Made by a program: the position numbers and the translations under genes. DNA of 64,000 nucleotides from Spirochaetota bacterium. GTDB lineage: Bacteria > Spirochaetota > Spirochaetia > Treponematales > UBA12059. The stretch is taken from the NCBI GenBank assembly GCA_029547205.1, contig JAKPPT010000068.1, positions 41,922 to 105,921 of the forward strand, given 5' to 3'. This document shows positions 735-54,652 of this stretch, piece after piece; within the stretch, counting starts at the first letter, position 1, and every line of letters begins with the position of its first letter. Under the pieces are notes generated by a model. The model worked only from the letters and a program-made list of their open reading frames with translations. It ran no database searches and was not told the origin of the DNA.

Positions 735-2426
735 ATGTTCTGTTATCAATGTCAAGAAGCAATGCAGGGGAAAGGTTGTGCCCTTGCAAAAGGTGTTTGT
801 GGCAAGCAGGATACAACCGCAGATTTGCAGGATCTTCTCACGCATACACTCAAAGGTATAGGTGCATGGGCAACAGAAGCAAGAAATCTGGGACTTGCCA
901 CGCCTGATGCAGACCGGTTTGTTGTAGAAAGCCTCTTTGCATCAATCACAAATGCAAACTTTGATGATGAGTGGTTCATCAACGCAATTAAGGAAGGGCT
1001 TGCTATTCGAACCAAACTGCGTGATGTAGTGCGAAGCAAGCGCGGAAGCAGAGAAGATGTTTCGTGTGCTGAAACTGGCTCCCAGACACCACGAGGAGGA
1101 GAAAAACCCATACTCTGCACCGATGCAGCACTCTGGAGTGCTGTCCCGCAAGACTTCGCAAGCAAGGCAAAAACAATTGGATTTCTCGCAGTTCAAAATG
1201 AAGATATTCGCTCGCTCATTGCTCTGTTAATCTTTGGGCTTCGCGGCATGGCAGCATATACTCACCACGCTATGGTACTTGGCTATACCGATGATACAAT
1301 CTTCGCATTTATGCATAAAGCGCTAGCAGCAACAACCGATCCCGCTATCACCGTAGATCAGCTTACAGCACTTGTTCTGGAATGCGGCACGATGGGTGTT
1401 ACTGCAATGGCTTTGCTTGACAAAGCAAACACCAGCACCTATGGTGAACCAGAAATAACAACTGTTGATATAGGTGTACGCAACAATCCTGGCATACTCA
1501 TTTCAGGCCACGATCTAAAAGATCTTGAAATGCTCCTAGAGCAGACAAAAGATCTTGGGATTGATATCTATACGCACAGCGAGATGCTGCCGGCCCACTA
1601 CTATCCTGCATTCAAGAAATATTCACACTTTGCAGGCAATTACGGCAATGCTTGGTGGAAACAGCGCGAAGAGTTTGAAAAGTTCAATGGACCTATTCTC
1701 ATGACAACAAACTGTCTTGTTCCTCCTGCCGATTCCTATAAAGATAGAGTGTATACAACCGGTATCGTGAGCTATCCAGGACTCAAACACATTGATGCCA
1801 ATACTAATGGTTATAAAGATTTTACACCTATTATTGAAGCAGCAAAACGATGTTTACCCCCGACACAGCTTGAAACGGGCAGCATTACTGGAGGCTTCGC
1901 TCACGGCCAGGTAATGAAACTAGCTGATAAAATAGTTGATGCTATAAAGTCTGGCAAAATCAAAAAGTTTGTTGTTATGGCCGGGTGTGACGGCAGAATG
2001 GCAAGCAGAAAATACTACGAAGAATTTGCACTCGCACTTCCAAAAGACACCGTAATACTAACTGCTGGATGTGCAAAGTACCGCTACAACAAACTCAACC
2101 TGGGGGATATCGATGGCATTCCTCGTGTACTCGATGCAGGTCAATGCAACGATTCATACTCGCTTGCTGTAACAGCACTCAAGCTTAAGGAAGTATTTGC
2201 ACTAGCCGATGTCAACGACCTCCCGCTTGTATTCAATATTGCCTGGTATGAGCAGAAAGCTGTCCTTGTACTCCTGGCACTCCTTGCGCTTGGGTTTAAA
2301 AACATTCATATCGGACCTACACTACCTGCATTCCTCTCCCCTGCTATCGCCAATGTACTTATAAAAACTTTCGGACTTGGCACGATTAGCAATGTACAAA
2401 ATGATATTACTCAGATGATTGGTTAA
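735..2426 (+). CDS. hcp: Hydroxylamine reductase / hybrid-cluster protein
   Basis: N-terminus MFCYQCQE...GKGCA is the Hcp cysteine motif. Length is 563 aa. RBS AAGGAGG lies 6 nt upstream. Confidence 0.95.
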
Positions 2427-7103: not shown

Positions 7104-7844
7104 ATGAAGCTCATAAGAACATATGGTGACACGCTTGATGACGGTAAAGTCCAGCTTTCGTTTACCCTCCCGGTGCCGGATGGAGCCCGCGGCAGAGAGG
7201 CTGCACGGAAACTTGTACTTGCATGGGGTTTCAAAGAATGCGAAGTAGTGCACTCTGCTCCGCTCTCAGAAGAATTTTCCTTTTATGTAGTGTATGGCAA
7301 ATCCGAAACCGCAATCGATTTTGATACAGTTGAAGCTGATGAAATCGATAAAGATGCCTCAATGAGCATGGATGAAGTCAATGAGTTTATCAGGCAGCAT
7401 ATAAAGCGCAAAGTTGTCGTTGTTGGTGCATGCACAGGCTTCGATGCACATACTGTAGGTATTGACGCCATTATGAACATGAAGGGTTATAACCACCACT
7501 ATGGACTCGAACGCTATCCCGAAATAGAAGCCTACAATCTTGGAGCACAGGTTCCCAATGAAAAGCTCATCGATTTTGCTGTAAAAGTTAAAGCTGATGC
7601 TATTCTCGTAAGCCAGGTAGTTACACAAAAAGATACACACATTCATAACATGACCGAATTTATAGAACTGCTTGAGGCAAAGAACCTGCGAGACAGGTTT
7701 ATCTGTATAGCCGGTGGTCCGCGCATCGGCAACAAGCTTGCTGTAGAGCTCGGATTTGATGCCGGTTTCGGTCGTGGCACATACGCTGATGATGTTGCCA
7801 CGTTTATTGTGAAAAAACTTGTAGAAAAAGCACAAGCTTCCTGA
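7104..7844 (+). CDS. kamE: D-lysine/beta-lysine 5,6-aminomutase beta subunit (B12/PLP-binding)
   Basis: YGDTLDDGKVQLSFTLP N-terminus; DxHxxG cobalamin motif (GFDAHTVGIDAIMNMKGY); 246 aa. Confidence 0.85.
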   Translation: MKLIRTYGDTLDDGKVQLSFTLPVPDGARGREAARKLVLAWGFKECEVVHSAPLSEEFSFYVVYGKSETAIDFDTVEADEIDKDASMSMDEVNEFIRQHIKRKVVVVGACTGFDAHTVGIDAIMNMKGYNHHYGLERYPEIEAYNLGAQVPNEKLIDFAVKVKADAILVSQVVTQKDTHIHNMTEFIELLEAKNLRDRFICIAGGPRIGNKLAVELGFDAGFGRGTYADDVATFIVKKLVEKAQAS

Positions 7845-7852
7845 CAAAATGC

Positions 7853-7881
7853 TTGACAAAAGTGCGATAAATCGGTATAGT
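7853..7881 (+). promoter_or_regulatory. Sigma-70 promoter for tRNA-Asp
   Basis: TTGACA (7853-7858), 17-bp spacer, TATAGT (7876-7881), about 20 bp upstream of the tRNA. Confidence 0.6.
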
Positions 7882-7901: not shown

Positions 7902-7975
7902 GGGGGCGTAGCGAAGCTGGTTATCGCGCTGGCCTGTCAAGCCGGAGATCGCGGGTTCAAGCCCCGTCGCTCCCG
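7902..7975 (+). tRNA. tRNA-Asp (anticodon GTC)
   Basis: Cloverleaf folded by hand: acceptor GGGGGCG/CGCTCCC, D-stem GCGA/TCGC, anticodon loop CTGTCAA, T-loop TTCAAGC; 74 nt. Confidence 0.85.
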
Positions 7976-8055: not shown

Positions 8056-8128
8056 CGGGTTGTAGCGCAGGGGCTAGCGCGCTTGGTTCGGGACCAAGAG
8101 GTCGTGGGTTCAATTCCCACCAGCCCGA
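8056..8128 (+). tRNA. tRNA-Pro (anticodon CGG)
   Basis: Acceptor CGGGTTG/CAGCCCG, D-stem GCGC/GCGC, anticodon stem CTTGG/CCAAG with loop TTCGGGA, T-loop TTCAATT; 73 nt. Confidence 0.85.
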
Positions 8129-8267
8129 TATTTAGCCATCACTTTCACTATAACTTCTCACAAGCTTTCATACATACTGATGAATCATTAATCACTGCAC
8201 AGCTCACACCATGTTCAAAGCGCTTTGGCCTTAACATGTTTTTCCGCTGGCGCTATGGTATCGAACT

Positions 8268-8287
8268 CAGTGTCATGAAGCTTGTTG
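8268..8287 (-). repeat. Reverse-orientation copy (CAACAAGCTTCATGACACTG); a weaker forward copy lies at 8159-8177
   Basis: Direct read. Confidence 0.75.
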
Positions 8288-8309
8288 CATAAAATTATCT
8301 CCACAACAT

Positions 8310-9695: not shown

Positions 9696-9727
9696 AAAAA
9701 AGGCTGTCTTACCGACAGCCTTTTTTC
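9696..9727. terminator. Bidirectional rho-independent terminator
   Basis: AAAAAA-GGCTGTC-ttacc-GACAGCC-TTTTTT, downstream of the minus-strand rhodanese gene. Confidence 0.65.
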
Positions 9728-19543: not shown

Positions 19544-19628
19544 GAGATTGTCGATAGTGTCACGAAAATTGTGGAGATAATGTTATGCACAAGCTTCATG
19601 ACACAAGGCATTCTTTTTACAAGCTTCA
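19544..19628. repeat. Three copies of the same repeat family in the cdaA-folP intergenic region (one reverse, two direct)
   Basis: 19544-19558 reverse (TTCGTGACACTAT), 19578-19597 (CACAAGCTTCATGACACAAG), 19608-19628 (TACAAGCTTCATAGCACTAAG). Confidence 0.85.
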
Positions 19629-19649
19629 TAGCACTAAGTTTAGCATGCA

Positions 19650-31676: not shown

Positions 31677-32324
31677 TTAACATGTTACTGTCCTGTTGTT
31701 TGAGTCTTTGATTGACCAGTATGCTGTGCTCGTATTTCTTGTAAAGCTTTTAAGCCAAAAACATAATGCATCAACTGTTATTGGAACAGAATCCCGTGTT
31801 AGTGTTGTTTCTGCACAAAAGTCAGTAACACGGGTACGAATGTCAATGAGATCACTTACTGAATCAAAAAATGGTAAAATCAGAAAAACTCCAGGGCCTT
31901 TTACTGCTTTAAATCGTCCAAGTCTAAGAATTATTGCTCGTTCCCATTCTCGCGTCATCTGAATCATTGTGCTTGCACTGCAGCTAAAAGCATAAATGCC
32001 GATAAACAAACCGATGGTAAACGGATTTACGTTATCCATTGATAACAGTGCGCCTATAAATGCAGAACTTAAAAAAAATATAACAAAGCCAATTTCCCAG
32101 CGTCTTAACCAGAATGTCCCAGCGATAAAAAGTAAAGGAAGGGCACATGCAATACCAACCCTTGCAGAAAAGGCATTGTACCCGAACTGAATTCCCATTA
32201 CGCATATTCCTGTGAACCAGAGTAGTAAAAATACCATTATATTAAAAGCATTCCAGGAAAAATGCGGTTCAAGTATAGGTTCATGAATATTCTTTATAAG
32301 ATAATGTTTTTTTCTTTCAGCCAT
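31677..32324 (-). CDS. Membrane protein: 4-TM N-terminal domain fused to a truncated SPFH/band-7 domain
   Basis: REWERAIILRLGRFKAVKGPGVFLILPFFDSV...ITVDALCFW matches the stomatin/QmcA SPFH N-terminal half. The protein ends about 90 aa into the domain. Confidence 0.55.
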   Translation of the reverse strand: MAERKKHYLIKNIHEPILEPHFSWNAFNIMVFLLLWFTGICVMGIQFGYNAFSARVGIACALPLLFIAGTFWLRRWEIGFVIFFLSSAFIGALLSMDNVNPFTIGLFIGIYAFSCSASTMIQMTREWERAIILRLGRFKAVKGPGVFLILPFFDSVSDLIDIRTRVTDFCAETTLTRDSVPITVDALCFWLKSFTRNTSTAYWSIKDSNNRTVTC

Positions 32325-32742
32325 GTTTGCTCCCTCCTTGCTCAGTCATTAGCAATTTAATCATTTCAATTAAATCTTTATACTGTATACCTAGCTTTTC
32401 AGCTTTTTTAAGCAAATTGAAAATATCAAGCTCAAGTTCATCTACCGCTTTCTGTCGCAATTTTTGTTCTTCAGGATGAGCAGCAATATCTGCAACATAT
32501 GTTCCGCTTCCGACCTGCGTAATAACAATCCCGCGAATTTCTAATTCTGTGTATGCCTTGGCAATTGTGTTAGGATTTATCTGTAGTTTTACTGCCAGTT
32601 CACGAATTGTTGGAAGTCGTGTTCCTGGCTGGAGCTTTCCAAACTGTACAGCATGTTCAATTGCATGAATAATTTGTCTATAAAATGGCACTCCACTTTT
32701 TGTATCGAGAAGAAAAGAAAATTCATTTTCCATATCTGCCAT
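32317..32742 (-). CDS. GntR-family transcriptional regulator, short YtrA-like subtype
   Basis: wHTH motif RLPTIRELAVKLQINPNTIAKAY. Start placed at the internal Met, which has a GAGGA RBS. Confidence 0.8.
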   Translation of the reverse strand: MADMENEFSFLLDTKSGVPFYRQIIHAIEHAVQFGKLQPGTRLPTIRELAVKLQINPNTIAKAYTELEIRGIVITQVGSGTYVADIAAHPEEQKLRQKAVDELELDIFNLLKKAEKLGIQYKDLIEMIKLLMTEQGGSKHG

Positions 32743-32767
32743 AATTTTCCTCATTCAATCGAGGCTA

Positions 32768-32805
32768 TTTGTCATATTGTACTAGTTTAATAGTACAATA
32801 TGACA
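32768..32805. promoter_or_regulatory. Perfect 16-bp-arm inverted repeat, TTGTCATATTGTACTA-N6-TAGTACAATATGACAA; putative YtrA-like autoregulatory operator
   Basis: Read directly from the sequence; lies 26 bp upstream of the regulator start. Confidence 0.6.
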
Positions 32806-32831
32806 ACATTTCTGTCAAGAAACAATTTTTC

Positions 32832-32978
32832 CTAGTGTCACGAACATTGTAAAACTGATTTCTTTAGTAACTATGCGTTTGATTTTAAGAGAAAGTGCAG
32901 AATAATATTGTATTGTTGAGAGATATCTCTACTAAATAATGTAGGGATACGTTTATACACAAACTTCGTGACACTAGA
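32832..32978. repeat. Inverted pair of repeat-family cores (CTAGTGTCACGAA ... TTCGTGACACTAG) flanking a 118-bp AT-rich segment
   Basis: 32832-32845 and 32964-32978 form 13-bp perfect inverted repeats. Confidence 0.8.
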
Positions 32979-33371
32979 TACCTTTTTCTCATTCATCATT
33001 GTAATGCTACAAAATTTTGTTGACTTCAGGTAGGTCATGAGAGGTGCTCCTCTCTTCTGGTAGCGCCTTGGAGACAATCTCCTTTCGCTATTCACAGTAT
33101 TCTGCCTATAAAGGTAATGGCAGATTCTCAGCTGGTGATAAACAGGGTGCTCTCTGGTGCTATCCTAAAAACTAATATGCTATGAAAACAGGGCTGCCAT
33201 ATAACGTGGCAGTCCTGTACGCCTGTTTCATAAATTGAAATAACTGTTTTTATATTTACAACGCATAAAAACAATATAATTAAAAAATAATTACTAATAT
33301 TACCATATTGACAAAGCTCATCATATACCACATTGTTAATTTAATTTTTCAAGCATGGAGGCATTTTAAAG

Positions 33372-34502
33372 GTGAAAGGCAGCGATGTAGTAATCAGCCA
33401 TGTTTCAAAAACATTTGGCAAATTTGAAGTACTCAAAGATGTAAGTCTTTCAATAAAGAAAGGTGAATTTTTTTCTTTGCTTGGTCCATCGGGCTGCGGG
33501 AAAACAACCCTACTCAGAATAATTGCTGGATTTGAACTTCCGGACAGTGGTGAAGTGACTATTGAAGGTATCAATGTGCTTCCCCTCCCTCCTAATAAGC
33601 GGTTTGTCAATACGGTATTTCAAAACTATGCATTGTTTCCACACCTCTCTATTTTTGAGAATGTTGCGTTTTCATTGCGACTCAAAAAAACACCGGAGTC
33701 AGAACTCAAAGACAAAGTATATAAATATCTAAAGCTTGTTGAACTCACTGAACACGCCCATAAAAAGCCTGGCATGCTTTCAGGAGGACAAAAGCAGCGT
33801 GTTGCAATTGCTCGAGCGCTCATCAATGAACCAAGTGTACTCCTCCTCGATGAGCCTCTTTCAGCGCTTGATGCGAAGTTGCGACAGCAGATGCTCATCG
33901 AACTTGATGCAATCCATGACAAAATTGGTATTACCTTTATTTATGTCACCCATGATCAACAAGAAGCACTGTCAGTTTCAGATAGAATTGCTGTTATGAA
34001 TCATGGTGAAGTTCTTCAGATAGGTACTCCGCATGAGATTTACGAAAGTCCTCGCACAAAATTCGTTGCAAAATTTATTGGAGAAACAAATCTTTTTGCT
34101 GGTGTTGTAAAAGCAAGCGAACCTTACACTAATGGAACCCGGCTCCTCACCATCGATGTAGAAAATCTGGGTTTAACAAAGGTAACCTGTGATCAGGATT
34201 ATACAGTAGGCACAAAAGTAACCTATACCATTAGGCCTGAGAAAATTGTAATCAGCACAACGGAACCCGGAATGCCTGCTTCAGGAAAGCATATCAATGT
34301 TGTGCAGGGTACAGTTGATGAACCAATTTATTCGGGCTTTAGCACGAAATATTTTGTTAAGCTTACCAGTTCCTTAACATTCAAAGTTATTAAACAGCAT
34401 GCAAACTACTCTGATGAAGGTCCCGCTATAAAATGGCAGGATAAAGTATGGCTTTCATGGAGCGCTGATGATGGCTATATTGTGGGAGAAAGCCATGATT
34501 AA
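33372..34502 (+). CDS. potA: Spermidine/putrescine ABC transporter ATP-binding protein
   Basis: Walker [25 protein letters not shown], and a C-terminal TOBE domain. Confidence 0.9.
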   Translation: MKGSDVVISHVSKTFGKFEVLKDVSLSIKKGEFFSLLGPSGCGKTTLLRIIAGFELPDSGEVTIEGINVLPLPPNKRFVNTVFQNYALFPHLSIFENVAFSLRLKKTPESELKDKVYKYLKLVELTEHAHKKPGMLSGGQKQRVAIARALINEPSVLLLDEPLSALDAKLRQQMLIELDAIHDKIGITFIYVTHDQQEALSVSDRIAVMNHGEVLQIGTPHEIYESPRTKFVAKFIGETNLFAGVVKASEPYTNGTRLLTIDVENLGLTKVTCDQDYTVGTKVTYTIRPEKIVISTTEPGMPASGKHINVVQGTVDEPIYSGFSTKYFVKLTSSLTFKVIKQHANYSDEGPAIKWQDKVWLSWSADDGYIVGESHD

Positions 34503-41971: not shown

Positions 41972-42102
41972 TAATCCTCCCTTGCTCTATACCGTATCAA
42001 AAACCATAACTATTCAGTATCAGTATAAAAGAGAAAATAGCTTTTTGTCAAAGCAGGTAGCATGTAGAGTTGTATAAATCAAATATATAGAAACTGGATT
42101 TT

Positions 42103-42123
42103 CACAATTTTCATGACACTAAG
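42103..42123 (+). repeat. Variant copy (CACAATTTTCATGACACTAAG)
   Basis: Direct read. Confidence 0.7.
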
Positions 42124-45944: not shown

Positions 45945-46745
45945 ATGCTTATTCTAGGTATCGTTATTGCTGTTATTGGTGTTATTGTATTTATTGTGAG
46001 AACCGGGCAGGTTAAAAAAGGCGAACTTATTGCTGGAACGGAAACTTCCCGAGTGGGAGAACTTTTGGAAACAGCTAAAAGCGTCGCGCAGGAAATAGGC
46101 GCAGGTTCATTTAATCAATTTGTAGAGATAAAAGGAACAACTGTGTGCAACGCTCCGCTTACCTCAGAACTAGCTAGAGTACCCTGTGTCCATTACAGTT
46201 TGACTGTTACAAGGGAATGGGAAGAAACTTACTGGGATAAGGACTCCGAAGGCAGAAGCGTCCAGCGCACCCGGAGTGGCTCAGATATCGTAGCCAGTAA
46301 CAACCGATCAACAATCTTTTATGTTGATGATGGCACTGGTCGTGTACGGGTTAATCCAGAAGGGGCTGAACTCATAAAAGAAAAAGCATTTTCACAGTTT
46401 CAGCCAGGCGAAGCACAGGGTTCAACTCTCCGTATCGGTGCGTTCTCGTTTAATATTGAGAATATCGGTGTGAATCTCGGAGGCGGCAGAAGAACACTTG
46501 GCTACCGGTATGAGGAACACATCATCCCCGTAGGAAAACCAGTGTACATTCTAGGCGAAGCCAGTGATGCAAGCGGTGAACTTACCATTATCAAACCTAC
46601 AGAAAAAGGCAAAAAGCTGCTCATCAGTGTTAAGAGCGAAGAAGAACTCATGAAGAGTGTCTCGACGACTAAACTGGTACTCCTCATTATCGCATGCTTA
46701 CTCTTAGCCGGTGGCGCTGTACTAATAGTGCTCAGTCTGTTCTGA
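45945..46745 (+). CDS. Hypothetical membrane protein with N- and C-terminal TM anchors (GIDE-like topology)
   Basis: Start placed at MLILGIV with a GAGGAGGG RBS; C-terminal hydrophobic helix. Confidence 0.6.
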   Translation: MLILGIVIAVIGVIVFIVRTGQVKKGELIAGTETSRVGELLETAKSVAQEIGAGSFNQFVEIKGTTVCNAPLTSELARVPCVHYSLTVTREWEETYWDKDSEGRSVQRTRSGSDIVASNNRSTIFYVDDGTGRVRVNPEGAELIKEKAFSQFQPGEAQGSTLRIGAFSFNIENIGVNLGGGRRTLGYRYEEHIIPVGKPVYILGEASDASGELTIIKPTEKGKKLLISVKSEEELMKSVSTTKLVLLIIACLLLAGGAVLIVLSLF

Positions 46746-46750
46746 ATGCT

Positions 46751-46828
46751 CACAAGCTTCGTGGCACTAACCACAAGCTTCGTGGCACTAGGCATGTGCT
46801 GGATACTCACAAGCTTCCTGACACTAAA
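46751..46828 (+). repeat. Tandem triplet of the 20-bp intergenic repeat CACAAGCTTC(G/C)TG(G/A)CACTA(A/G)
   Basis: Copies at 46751-46770, 46772-46791 (21-bp period) and 46808-46828. Confidence 0.9.
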
Positions 46829-53330: not shown

Positions 53331-53639
53331 GTTTTGCCAATAGGTCTTTACAAACACCTTGCACCCTGTTACTGTGAGATCTTTCCACTTCCCGAATGCT
53401 GCGTACAGACACTAACCTGTGGTTGGTGTCAGGAAGCTTGTTAACAAACGCACCACAACAATATTTAGTATGTATATTTATACATCATACAACATATTGT
53501 TTACTCTCGGTAAAAACAATTTTGTAGTAAGTACAAACAACTTTTTCACATTCTTCATGACACCAGCACCATCTTGTTTCTGTACCTTCTTTCATGGTAT
53601 TGTATGAGCATCTCCGAGTTTTTATATCTACATCATACG

Positions 53640-53770
53640 GTCTATGACACGATATAAAAACCGAGGTTGTGAGCAGCACAATCACTCATGTTGTACGTGT
53701 TTCATGCTCGCAGCCGAGGGTTGTTCTGGAAACAGAGCAGCCTCCCGTATTTTGGAAAGGAGGAGTATCA
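53640..53770 (+). promoter_or_regulatory. Candidate molybdenum/tungsten-cofactor (Moco/Tuco-type) riboswitch leader
   Basis: Structured leader upstream of the tupA-moa operon. A 13-bp stem capped by a GAAA tetraloop sits at 53716-53744. CCGAGG and CCUCCCG elements lie next to the RBS GGAAAGGAGG. Confidence 0.35.
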
Positions 53771-54652
53771 ATGAAGTTTCTCAATGTTTTGATAGCGGTA
53801 CTTGGGATTGTAGTGTTTTCACTTTCCGCTTGTAAACAAACACCAGCAATACGACTTGCTACCACAACCAGTCTTGAACAATCAGGTCTTCTTGGAGAAC
53901 TGATTGAAGCATTTACGAAAAAACAGCATATACCGATTCAAGTTATCACCACCGGGAGTGGGGCAGCGCTTGAACTTGGTAAAAATGGTGATGTAGATGT
54001 AATTATTGCTCATGCTCCAGAATTGGAAAAGCAATTTATGGATTCTGGATATGGGCTTGAACGACATTCGTTTCTATACTCACGTTTTGTTGTACTCGGC
54101 CCTCTTGAAGATCCTGCACACATTGCAAACGCTCAAAACCCAGAGGATGTATTCAAGCGTATAGCTCTCTACAATCAAAGAGGTAATACACAAAAAACAT
54201 TTAATAATTTACCACAACAGCATGCTATGTTTGTATCACGAGGGGATAATTCGGGGACAGATGTTTTGGAAAAATCGATCTGGAACAAGATTGGGATAAA
54301 ACCTGATTCATCGTGGTACAAAGAATCGGGTCAGGGAATGAGCGAAACGATACTCCTTGCGAATGCTCTCAGTGCGTATACCATTTCTGATTTGCCTACC
54401 TGGCTTGCTGTATCAGAGAGCGCATGGTTTAAACAAAATTACTCAAATACAGTAACTATACTGTATGACGCTCCCGGGCAACAGGATTTTTCTAACATAT
54501 ATAGTGTCATTGTCATCAAAAACAATAGTGCTCCTCAAAACCAAAATAACGCAAAATTATTTGCTGATTTTCTTCTCACTGAGGAGTCTCAATCTATTAT
54601 CAATAATTTTTCGATACAAGGAATACGCTGCTATAACAGCATACAACCTTAA
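53771..54652 (+). CDS. tupA: Tungstate/molybdate-binding periplasmic lipoprotein (TupA/WtpA-type)
   Basis: Lipobox LSAC; RLATTTSLEQSGLL...GDVDVIIAHAPE matches TupA. Confidence 0.75.
   Translation: MKFLNVLIAVLGIVVFSLSACKQTPAIRLATTTSLEQSGLLGELIEAFTKKQHIPIQVITTGSGAALELGKNGDVDVIIAHAPELEKQFMDSGYGLERHSFLYSRFVVLGPLEDPAHIANAQNPEDVFKRIALYNQRGNTQKTFNNLPQQHAMFVSRGDNSGTDVLEKSIWNKIGIKPDSSWYKESGQGMSETILLANALSAYTISDLPTWLAVSESAWFKQNYSNTVTILYDAPGQQDFSNIYSVIVIKNNSAPQNQNNAKLFADFLLTEESQSIINNFSIQGIRCYNSIQP

Follow-up and report, generated by a model that had tools for sequence, protein, structure and literature searches.

How much of the intergenic DNA between a YtrA-like regulator gene and the divergently oriented potA is regulatory? 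In the 64,000-nucleotide stretch of spirochaete DNA that was analysed (the window), these genes are separated by a gap of about 600 bp. An earlier note on this DNA proposed that a perfect inverted repeat at one end of the gap is the autoregulatory operator of the regulator. It described the remainder as structured and non-coding, and suggested that a small RNA might be encoded there or that the pot leader might be long. The reading favoured here, with a probability of roughly 0.8, is that the gap is a mosaic in which one working regulatory site and two ordinary promoters sit among evolutionary debris. The features on which this reading is based are listed in Table 1.

Table 1. Features of the gap between the regulator gene and potA, by position in the window.
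Feature	Position	Strand	Remarks
YtrA-subfamily GntR regulator gene	32317-32754	-	longest ORF, 145 aa
Perfect palindrome, proposed operator	32769-32784 / 32791-32806	.	16-bp arms, 6-bp spacer
Operator core, 22 bp, TTGTACTA-N6-TAGTACAA as read on the minus strand	32777-32798	.	arms identical in L001 and L013
-10 hexamer TACTAT, regulator operon promoter	32795-32790	-	17-nt spacer; within operator core
-35 hexamer TTGACA, regulator operon promoter	32818-32813	-	sigma-70-type
146-bp non-coding element	32832-32977	.	inverted copies of a dispersed 21-nt repeat at its ends
Spacer, ~110 nt, origin unassigned	32978-33088	.	hairpins 33021-33037 and 33039-33054
Peptidase_M10 (matrixin-like) gene fragment, last 28 codons (YSQYSAYKGNGRFSAGDKQGALWCYPKN) and stop	33089-33175	+	tblastn
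13-bp stem-loop, decayed remnant of the intrinsic terminator that followed the lost protease gene	33188-33218	+	alignment with L022 and L013
potA promoter: TTGACA (33308-33313), 17-nt spacer, CATTGT (33331-33336)	33308-33336	+	conserved in six relatives
Shine-Dalgarno GGAGGC (33357-33362) and GTG start codon of potA (33372)	33357-33374	+	

The palindrome exists as it was first written down, but its position was given as 32768-32805 and is actually 32769-32806, one base to the right. Its two arms (TTGTCATATTGTACTA and TAGTACAATATGACAA, 16 nt each) are 100% complementary, and two tandem TTGTnnTA boxes can be read in each of them (TTGTCATA|TTGTACTA). No perfect inverted repeat in the 64-kb window is longer when spacers of up to 12 nt are allowed; in 30 block shuffles the maximum arm length was 8-12 nt. 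No second copy of the operator was found above chance in the window. The runner-up in length among the perfect inverted repeats (AAAAAAGGCTGTC-N5-GACAGCCTTTTTT, 9696-9726) looks like a bidirectional intrinsic terminator and is located between convergent or adjacent genes.

The gene next to the palindrome probably starts at the ATG at 32742 rather than at the first ATG of the open reading frame (32754), giving a protein of 141 aa. The downstream ATG is favoured because it is preceded by GAGGA (32752-32748) and because orthologues of 141-144 aa begin there with MA(E/D)... The Pfam GntR domain (PF00392) matches residues 25-87 of the protein (6.6e-16), and about 55 residues remain beyond it. In the AF2 model (mean pLDDT 80.6) the winged helix-turn-helix consists of three helices and a two-strand wing, and the C-terminal part contains exactly two helices (94-120 and 125-136). 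The top PDB matches by sequence and by fold (4ham, 3by6, 4r1h, 3neu, 2du9/2ek5, and 6sbs) are all YtrA-type proteins of 113-134 aa. The regulator is therefore a member of the YtrA subfamily: it has the winged helix-turn-helix and the short two-helix C-terminal domain, it is found at the head of an operon, and it is accompanied by a palindrome. It is not an orthologue of PmtR or Rv1152, since it scores 61.5 bits against the NCBIfam PmtR model (cutoff 200) and is likewise far under the threshold of the Rv1152 model.

In the operon, the regulator gene is followed by overlapping or closely spaced genes for an SPFH/Band_7 protein, an ABC ATPase (ABC_tran), and two FtsX/MacB_PCD permeases. The gene order GntR-Band_7-ABC_tran-FtsX recurs in seven other spirochaete loci (L013, L016-L021). 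The SPFH/Band_7 gene of the window (31677-32324, minus strand) encodes only 215 aa and its sequence departs after ...DALCFWL; the orthologues in L001, L013, and L016-L021 have 358-375 aa. The truncation is common to all four strain-level contigs and hence probably reflects a deletion or a pseudogene.

The promoter of the regulator operon overlaps the palindrome. TTGACA-17-TACTAT matches the consensus at 10 of 12 positions, and transcription is predicted to begin near 32783, at about the middle of the palindrome, which spans about -24 to +15 of this promoter. Two close orthologous upstream regions from related Treponemataceae, L001 and L013, were compared with the window. A search of genome and metagenome contigs with the regulator yielded one close locus (L001), which reaches 125 nt upstream. 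The regulators are 76% (L001) and 69% (L013) identical to that of the window. Both loci keep TTGACA-17-TACTAT at the same distance together with the 22-bp core, while the surrounding sequence diverges. The outer halves of the arms diverge too, but the one on the promoter side is still a TTGTnnTA box in all three species, and its counterpart in the other arm is partially conserved among them. The perfect outer 8 bp of each arm are specific to the species of the window, and the presence of an extra box would account for them only partly.

The host of the window is an uncultured member of the Treponemataceae. JGI metagenome contigs identical or nearly identical to the window exist, and among the four strain-level contigs the operator is free of SNPs. 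In the more distant loci L016-L021 the -35 hexamer is TTGACA or TTGACT. In spirochaete orthologues of ~55% identity, boxes of the TTGTACTA/TAGTACAA type adjoin the -35 hexamer in variable arrangement and spacing, which makes the exact binding geometry uncertain. The half-site heptamer TAGTACA is found 11 times in the 700 nt upstream of 7 orthologues; the remainder of those loci, 43.4 kb, contains it 5 times, which makes a ~130-fold enrichment. Judged from the DNA, the palindrome is most likely the autorepression site of the adjacent YtrA-type regulator, which would bind across the predicted start site. The proposal of an autoregulatory operator is thus supported by the overlap with the -10 box and start, the conserved core and promoter, the YtrA subfamily of the regulator, and its place at the head of an ABC operon.

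Two papers (PMC6746942, PMC4494728) describe YtrA-type genes as usually the first in ABC-transporter operons, repressing both the operon and themselves. The operators are described there as long palindromes with distal GT/AC, typically one site for one operon. The present locus is similar to Bacillus subtilis YtrA/ytrGABCDEF and Staphylococcus aureus PmtR/pmtR-pmtABCD in that an ABC-transporter operon includes the gene for a small GntR protein whose C-terminal domain consists of two helices (PMC5080381, PMC6746942, and PMC12772383). The regulator gene is first here, whereas B. subtilis ytrA is second, after ytrG. A single long palindrome placed over the promoter and start is also shared: S. 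aureus PmtR protects 36 bp across the transcription start (PMC5080381), compared with the 38-bp palindrome of this locus. Unlike the YtrA and PmtR systems, this one includes an SPFH/Band-7 gene and MacB/FtsX-type permeases, its host is a spirochaete, and the binding is a predicted one.

The site also agrees with YtrA motifs as they are outlined in comparative-genomic work (Rigali 2002 as cited; Suvorova 2015, PMC4494728): a long palindrome of ~22-24 bp with an AT-rich middle and distal GT...AC. One site per operon is likewise a property of the YtrA operator motifs described there (PMC4494728, PMC6746942), and secondary half-site-like boxes flank the core as they do at the Sulfolobus YtrA site (PMC6746942). 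The half-site TTGTACTA and the perfect extension to 16-bp arms in this species come from no motif described in the running text of these papers.

Beyond the regulator promoter the gap changes in character. The 146-bp element begins 26 nt from the palindrome and 13 nt upstream of the regulator -35 box. The inverted pair of a dispersed repeat that had been noticed here is indeed present (32832-32850 and 32959-32977, 19 nt, 89% complementary). The 21-nt unit has the consensus yTAGTGTCAyGAAGCTTGTGa. A position-weight scan detected ~19 units in the window compared with 0-3 in shuffles, and the 13-mer core of the repeat occurs 9 times where 1.0 is expected. Strong matches to the unit are found between long ORFs, and several weak ones inside ORFs. 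The units are arranged as singles, tandem arrays (46745-46827), and convergent or inverted pairs (7792/7825, 19554/19582). A second full-length copy of the element is located at 53426-53581 (67% identical, E 1.5e-13), and both full-length copies fold into long hairpins.

Further units are found at 7792-7854, 8267-8292, 13581, 19554-19640, 42097-42122, 45861, 46745-46827, and 53423-53566. These include ~60-nt convergent pairs, a tandem triple, and copies flanking the tRNA genes at 7902-7975 and 8056-8128. The second full-length copy ends ~35 nt short of a Moco/tungsten-cofactor riboswitch (53600-53778, plus strand; RF01055, 75.8 bits, E 1.5e-16), which precedes the gene for a PBP_like_2 solute-binding protein (53669-54652).

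REP/BIME and small palindromic MITE-like repeats (e.g. Correia, ERIC, and RUP elements) are the comparison group for such a sequence. The element resembles REP/BIME or MITE-like repeats. As in that group, the unit is short, its strong copies are intergenic, and it is found in single, tandem, and inverted-pair form. A pair enclosing ~110 nt makes up a hairpin-forming element of ~146 bp with at least two copies, which also fits the comparison group. The 19-nt terminal inverted repeats, the length of 146 bp without coding capacity, and the two full-length copies alongside shorter pairs are MITE traits. For REP/BIME the traits are mixed: inverted pairs occur and the strong copies are intergenic, but the stem of the unit is only 6 bp (TCACGA-AGC-TTGTGA) with one G.T pair. 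Besides this short stem, the element differs from the comparison group in having no evident target-site duplication (no direct repeat abuts the ends of either full-length copy) and no transposase among the 15 scanned genes adjoining repeat units. The 21-nt unit was not found in the fetched loci of related species.

Two regulatory readings of the repeat were rejected. Sigma-54 promoters carry GG at -24 and GC at -12 (TGGCAC-N5-TTGC). The spacing of TGTCAC/TGCCAC-N5-TTGT in the unit fits this pattern, but the invariant GG and GC are broken, and the orientation fails as well, with many units pointing away from or into neighbouring genes. A transcription-factor regulon was dismissed because the genes adjoining the units are functionally unrelated (aminomutase, MFS transporter, MalQ, MurB, CdaA, DHPS, ankyrin, nitroreductase, PhoH, and TPR proteins).

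Towards its centre, the gap contains the remains of a gene. The statement that the gap has no convincing ORF holds but misses the 3' end of a protease gene at 33089-33175. Three ORFs in the gap (74, 43, and 67 aa) have no credible Pfam match, and a JGI-called 55-aa gene in the gap overlaps the repeat element. By tblastn, 33089-33172 is identical in 24 of 28 residues (86%, E 3e-12) to the C-terminus of a 285-aa protease in L022. At the nucleotide level 33088-33181 is 75.5% identical to the 3' end of the same protease gene (blastn, E 5e-16). L022-L024 contain the closest relatives of PotA (82% identical), and in them a 285-aa Peptidase_M10 gene immediately precedes potA; in L022 this gene is intact (Pfam 1.2e-09). 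The divergent arrangement of regulator operon and potA is shared by L013, where ~2.3 kb separates the two and a Peptidase_M10 pseudogene with at least two in-frame stops is found at 932-1580 (minus strand of the locus). The gene thus forms a decay series: L022 has it intact, L013 has it as a pseudogene, and the window retains a stub of 28 codons (87 nt). This is similar to other gene fragments left by intergenic deletion, in which the 3' end and the terminator survive, and synteny upstream of potA is conserved.

The stem-loop that follows the stub aligns with the GGGGCTG...CAGCCCC-TTTT protease terminators of L022 and L013, and its T-run is eroded to ACGCCTGTTTC. SNPs in the gap among the four strain-level contigs are found at 33213, 33220, 33223, and 33325; the first (T to C) turns a G.U into a G-C pair in the old terminator stem. 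The fragment and its old terminator explain why the centre of the gap is richer in GC and in hairpins. Between the repeat element and the stub, the ~110-nt spacer resembles nothing else in the window, nor anything in L022 or L013, at a significant level; the similarity of 32978-33092 to the L022 and L013 neighbourhoods stays within the range of shuffled controls. The GAGAGG-tgct-CCTCTC hairpin that had been pointed out is present in this spacer (33039-33054), whose fold z-score of about -2.4 to -2.6 is unexceptional.

The description of the gap as structured and non-coding is correct insofar as there is an excess of predicted structure, but this is concentrated in 33180-33260 and the gap itself is a mosaic of debris. 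The plus strand of 33010-33260 folds with a z-score of about -4.9. When it is divided, 33180-33260, which contains the old terminator, reaches -5.7 and 33015-33180 reaches -2.6. The background of the window on a coarse grid is -0.78 +/- 1.33, with 7% of windows at or below -3. The structure excess therefore comes mostly from the old terminator at 33188-33218. When the gap is aligned with L022 and L013, three parts have a counterpart there: the protease codons, the terminator, and the potA promoter. No conservation was detected outside the protease fragment and the promoters.

At the other end of the gap, potA appears to have a promoter of its own. L022 and L013 preserve the block TATTGACAAAGC...CCATTGTTAA, and the TTGACA-17-CATTGT layout is also found in L025-L027 (PotA identity 72-73%), where the flanks are different. 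CATTGT matches the -10 consensus at 3 of 6 positions, the key A2 and T6 among them; it could instead be a conserved regulator site. The predicted start of potA transcription is near 33344, which would give a leader of ~28 nt. GGAGGC and GTGAAAGGC are conserved in the potA relatives, and PotA matches the NCBIfam potA model TIGR01187 above the cutoff (369.7 bits). As the conserved promoter gives such a short leader, a long pot leader running through the gap is unlikely.

In the mechanism proposed from these observations, a dimer of the regulator, or possibly two dimers in view of the two TTGTnnTA boxes per arm, would bind the core TTGTACTA-N6-TAGTACAA. The bound protein would cover the -10 box and the start of TTGACA-17-TACTAT and so block RNA polymerase. 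Expression of the regulator itself, together with the SPFH/Band-7 protein, the ABC ATPase, and both FtsX/MacB-type permeases of its operon, would stay repressed until a signal frees the regulator; by analogy this signal may be envelope stress or an exported substrate. The features of the sequence, how they are conserved, the family to which the protein belongs, and the homology of the fragment are direct observations, and the binding, the repression, both start sites, and the signal are inferred from them. The 32832-32977 segment is a copy of a lineage-specific dispersed repeat element, and 33089-33218 is the remnant of a Peptidase_M10 gene and its terminator, a gene that in relatives lies between the regulator operon and potA. 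potA would be driven by its own conserved promoter ~60 nt ahead of the start codon, producing a short leader.

The operator TTGTACTA-N6-TAGTACAA is a clean, testable site for a spirochaete clade of YtrA-type regulators that would control an operon for an SPFH protein and a MacB-like ABC exporter. The rest of the gap illustrates that gene decay and repeat insertion can explain a seemingly "structured" intergenic region, so that a false sRNA or riboswitch annotation is avoided. The locus is a further case of a well-known regulatory unit within ordinary genomic debris and is otherwise conventional.

Other explanations of the palindrome were considered. Instead of binding a protein, it might form a terminator or attenuator hairpin in RNA, or it might belong to a mobile element: a terminator scan lists it on the plus strand, with a 16-bp stem and a tail that contains T residues, and the dispersed repeat element begins only 26 nt away. 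However, no plus-strand gene ends upstream of the palindrome and the stem is AT-rich, with G-C pairs at 4 of 16 positions. Because the predicted minus-strand start lies inside the palindrome, the mRNA would carry one arm only, which favours a DNA site over an RNA hairpin. The sequence of the palindrome is also unique in the window, and across species without the repeat element the position of the core co-varies with the regulator promoter; an RNA hairpin or mobile-element origin is extremely improbable. It is very unlikely, too, that the palindrome acts on both divergent units and that the YtrA-like protein also regulates potABCD. The palindrome does lie in the intergenic region shared by both, and control of a divergon from a single site is known for FadR and HutC members, but the same source calls divergent regulation very rare in the YtrA subfamily (PMC4494728). 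Moreover, ~500 nt containing the repeat element and the gene fragment separate the operator from the potA promoter, and there is no second site near potA. The adjacency to potA is itself recent: the protease gene intervenes in L022 and L013, and the neighbours in L016-L021 are different.

Another reading is that ~33020-33250 encodes, on either strand, an sRNA, or that it serves the pot operon as a cis-regulatory leader or a riboswitch. This is quite unlikely. Apart from the low fold z-score of 33010-33260 on the plus strand, a promoter-like site on the minus strand (33314-33287) and a hairpin-TTTTC (33212-33194) could bound an RNA of ~100 nt, and pot leaders do exist in the family, as ~100 nt before potA are conserved in L025-L027. 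On the other hand, the structure signal originates from the old terminator, the remainder having a z-score of -2.6, and the minus-strand promoter-like site is not conserved in L022. The leader of L025-L027 has no counterpart in the window, and the conserved potA promoter is downstream of 33020-33250. The sole conserved sequence in this region is protein-coding debris, conserved as codons. Rfam 15 at the gathering threshold gave no match in the gap when the whole window was searched. At E up to 10, a search of 32600-33500 returned only eukaryotic snoRNA and miRNA families and others far under their gathering scores. Neither the suggested small RNA nor a long pot leader is thus supported, the gap being accounted for by the protease stub and its terminator, a repeat copy, and a potA promoter with a short leader. 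A related idea is that the 21-nt unit and its 146-bp form are an undescribed family of mobile or structural repeats in an uncultured Treponemataceae lineage, and that the copies beside the regulator -35 box and the Moco riboswitch, or the retained protease terminator, have been co-opted to insulate or tune promoters or as a source of sRNA. This is unlikely as well, and the mosaic of one operator, two promoters, and debris remains the preferred reading.

The relatives L025-L027 differ from the window in their potA leader. Between the TTGACA-17-CATTGT promoter and potA they have ~100 nt (2410-2500 in L025 and L027) that are highly conserved (...CGAATCCGGGGTTCCGCGGGC...GGTTTTGCAGACTCAAGTA..GGGTCAGAGGAGG), and the upstream flanks are diverged. 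At E up to 1 this leader matches no Rfam family; it could represent a pot leader RNA that is so far undescribed.
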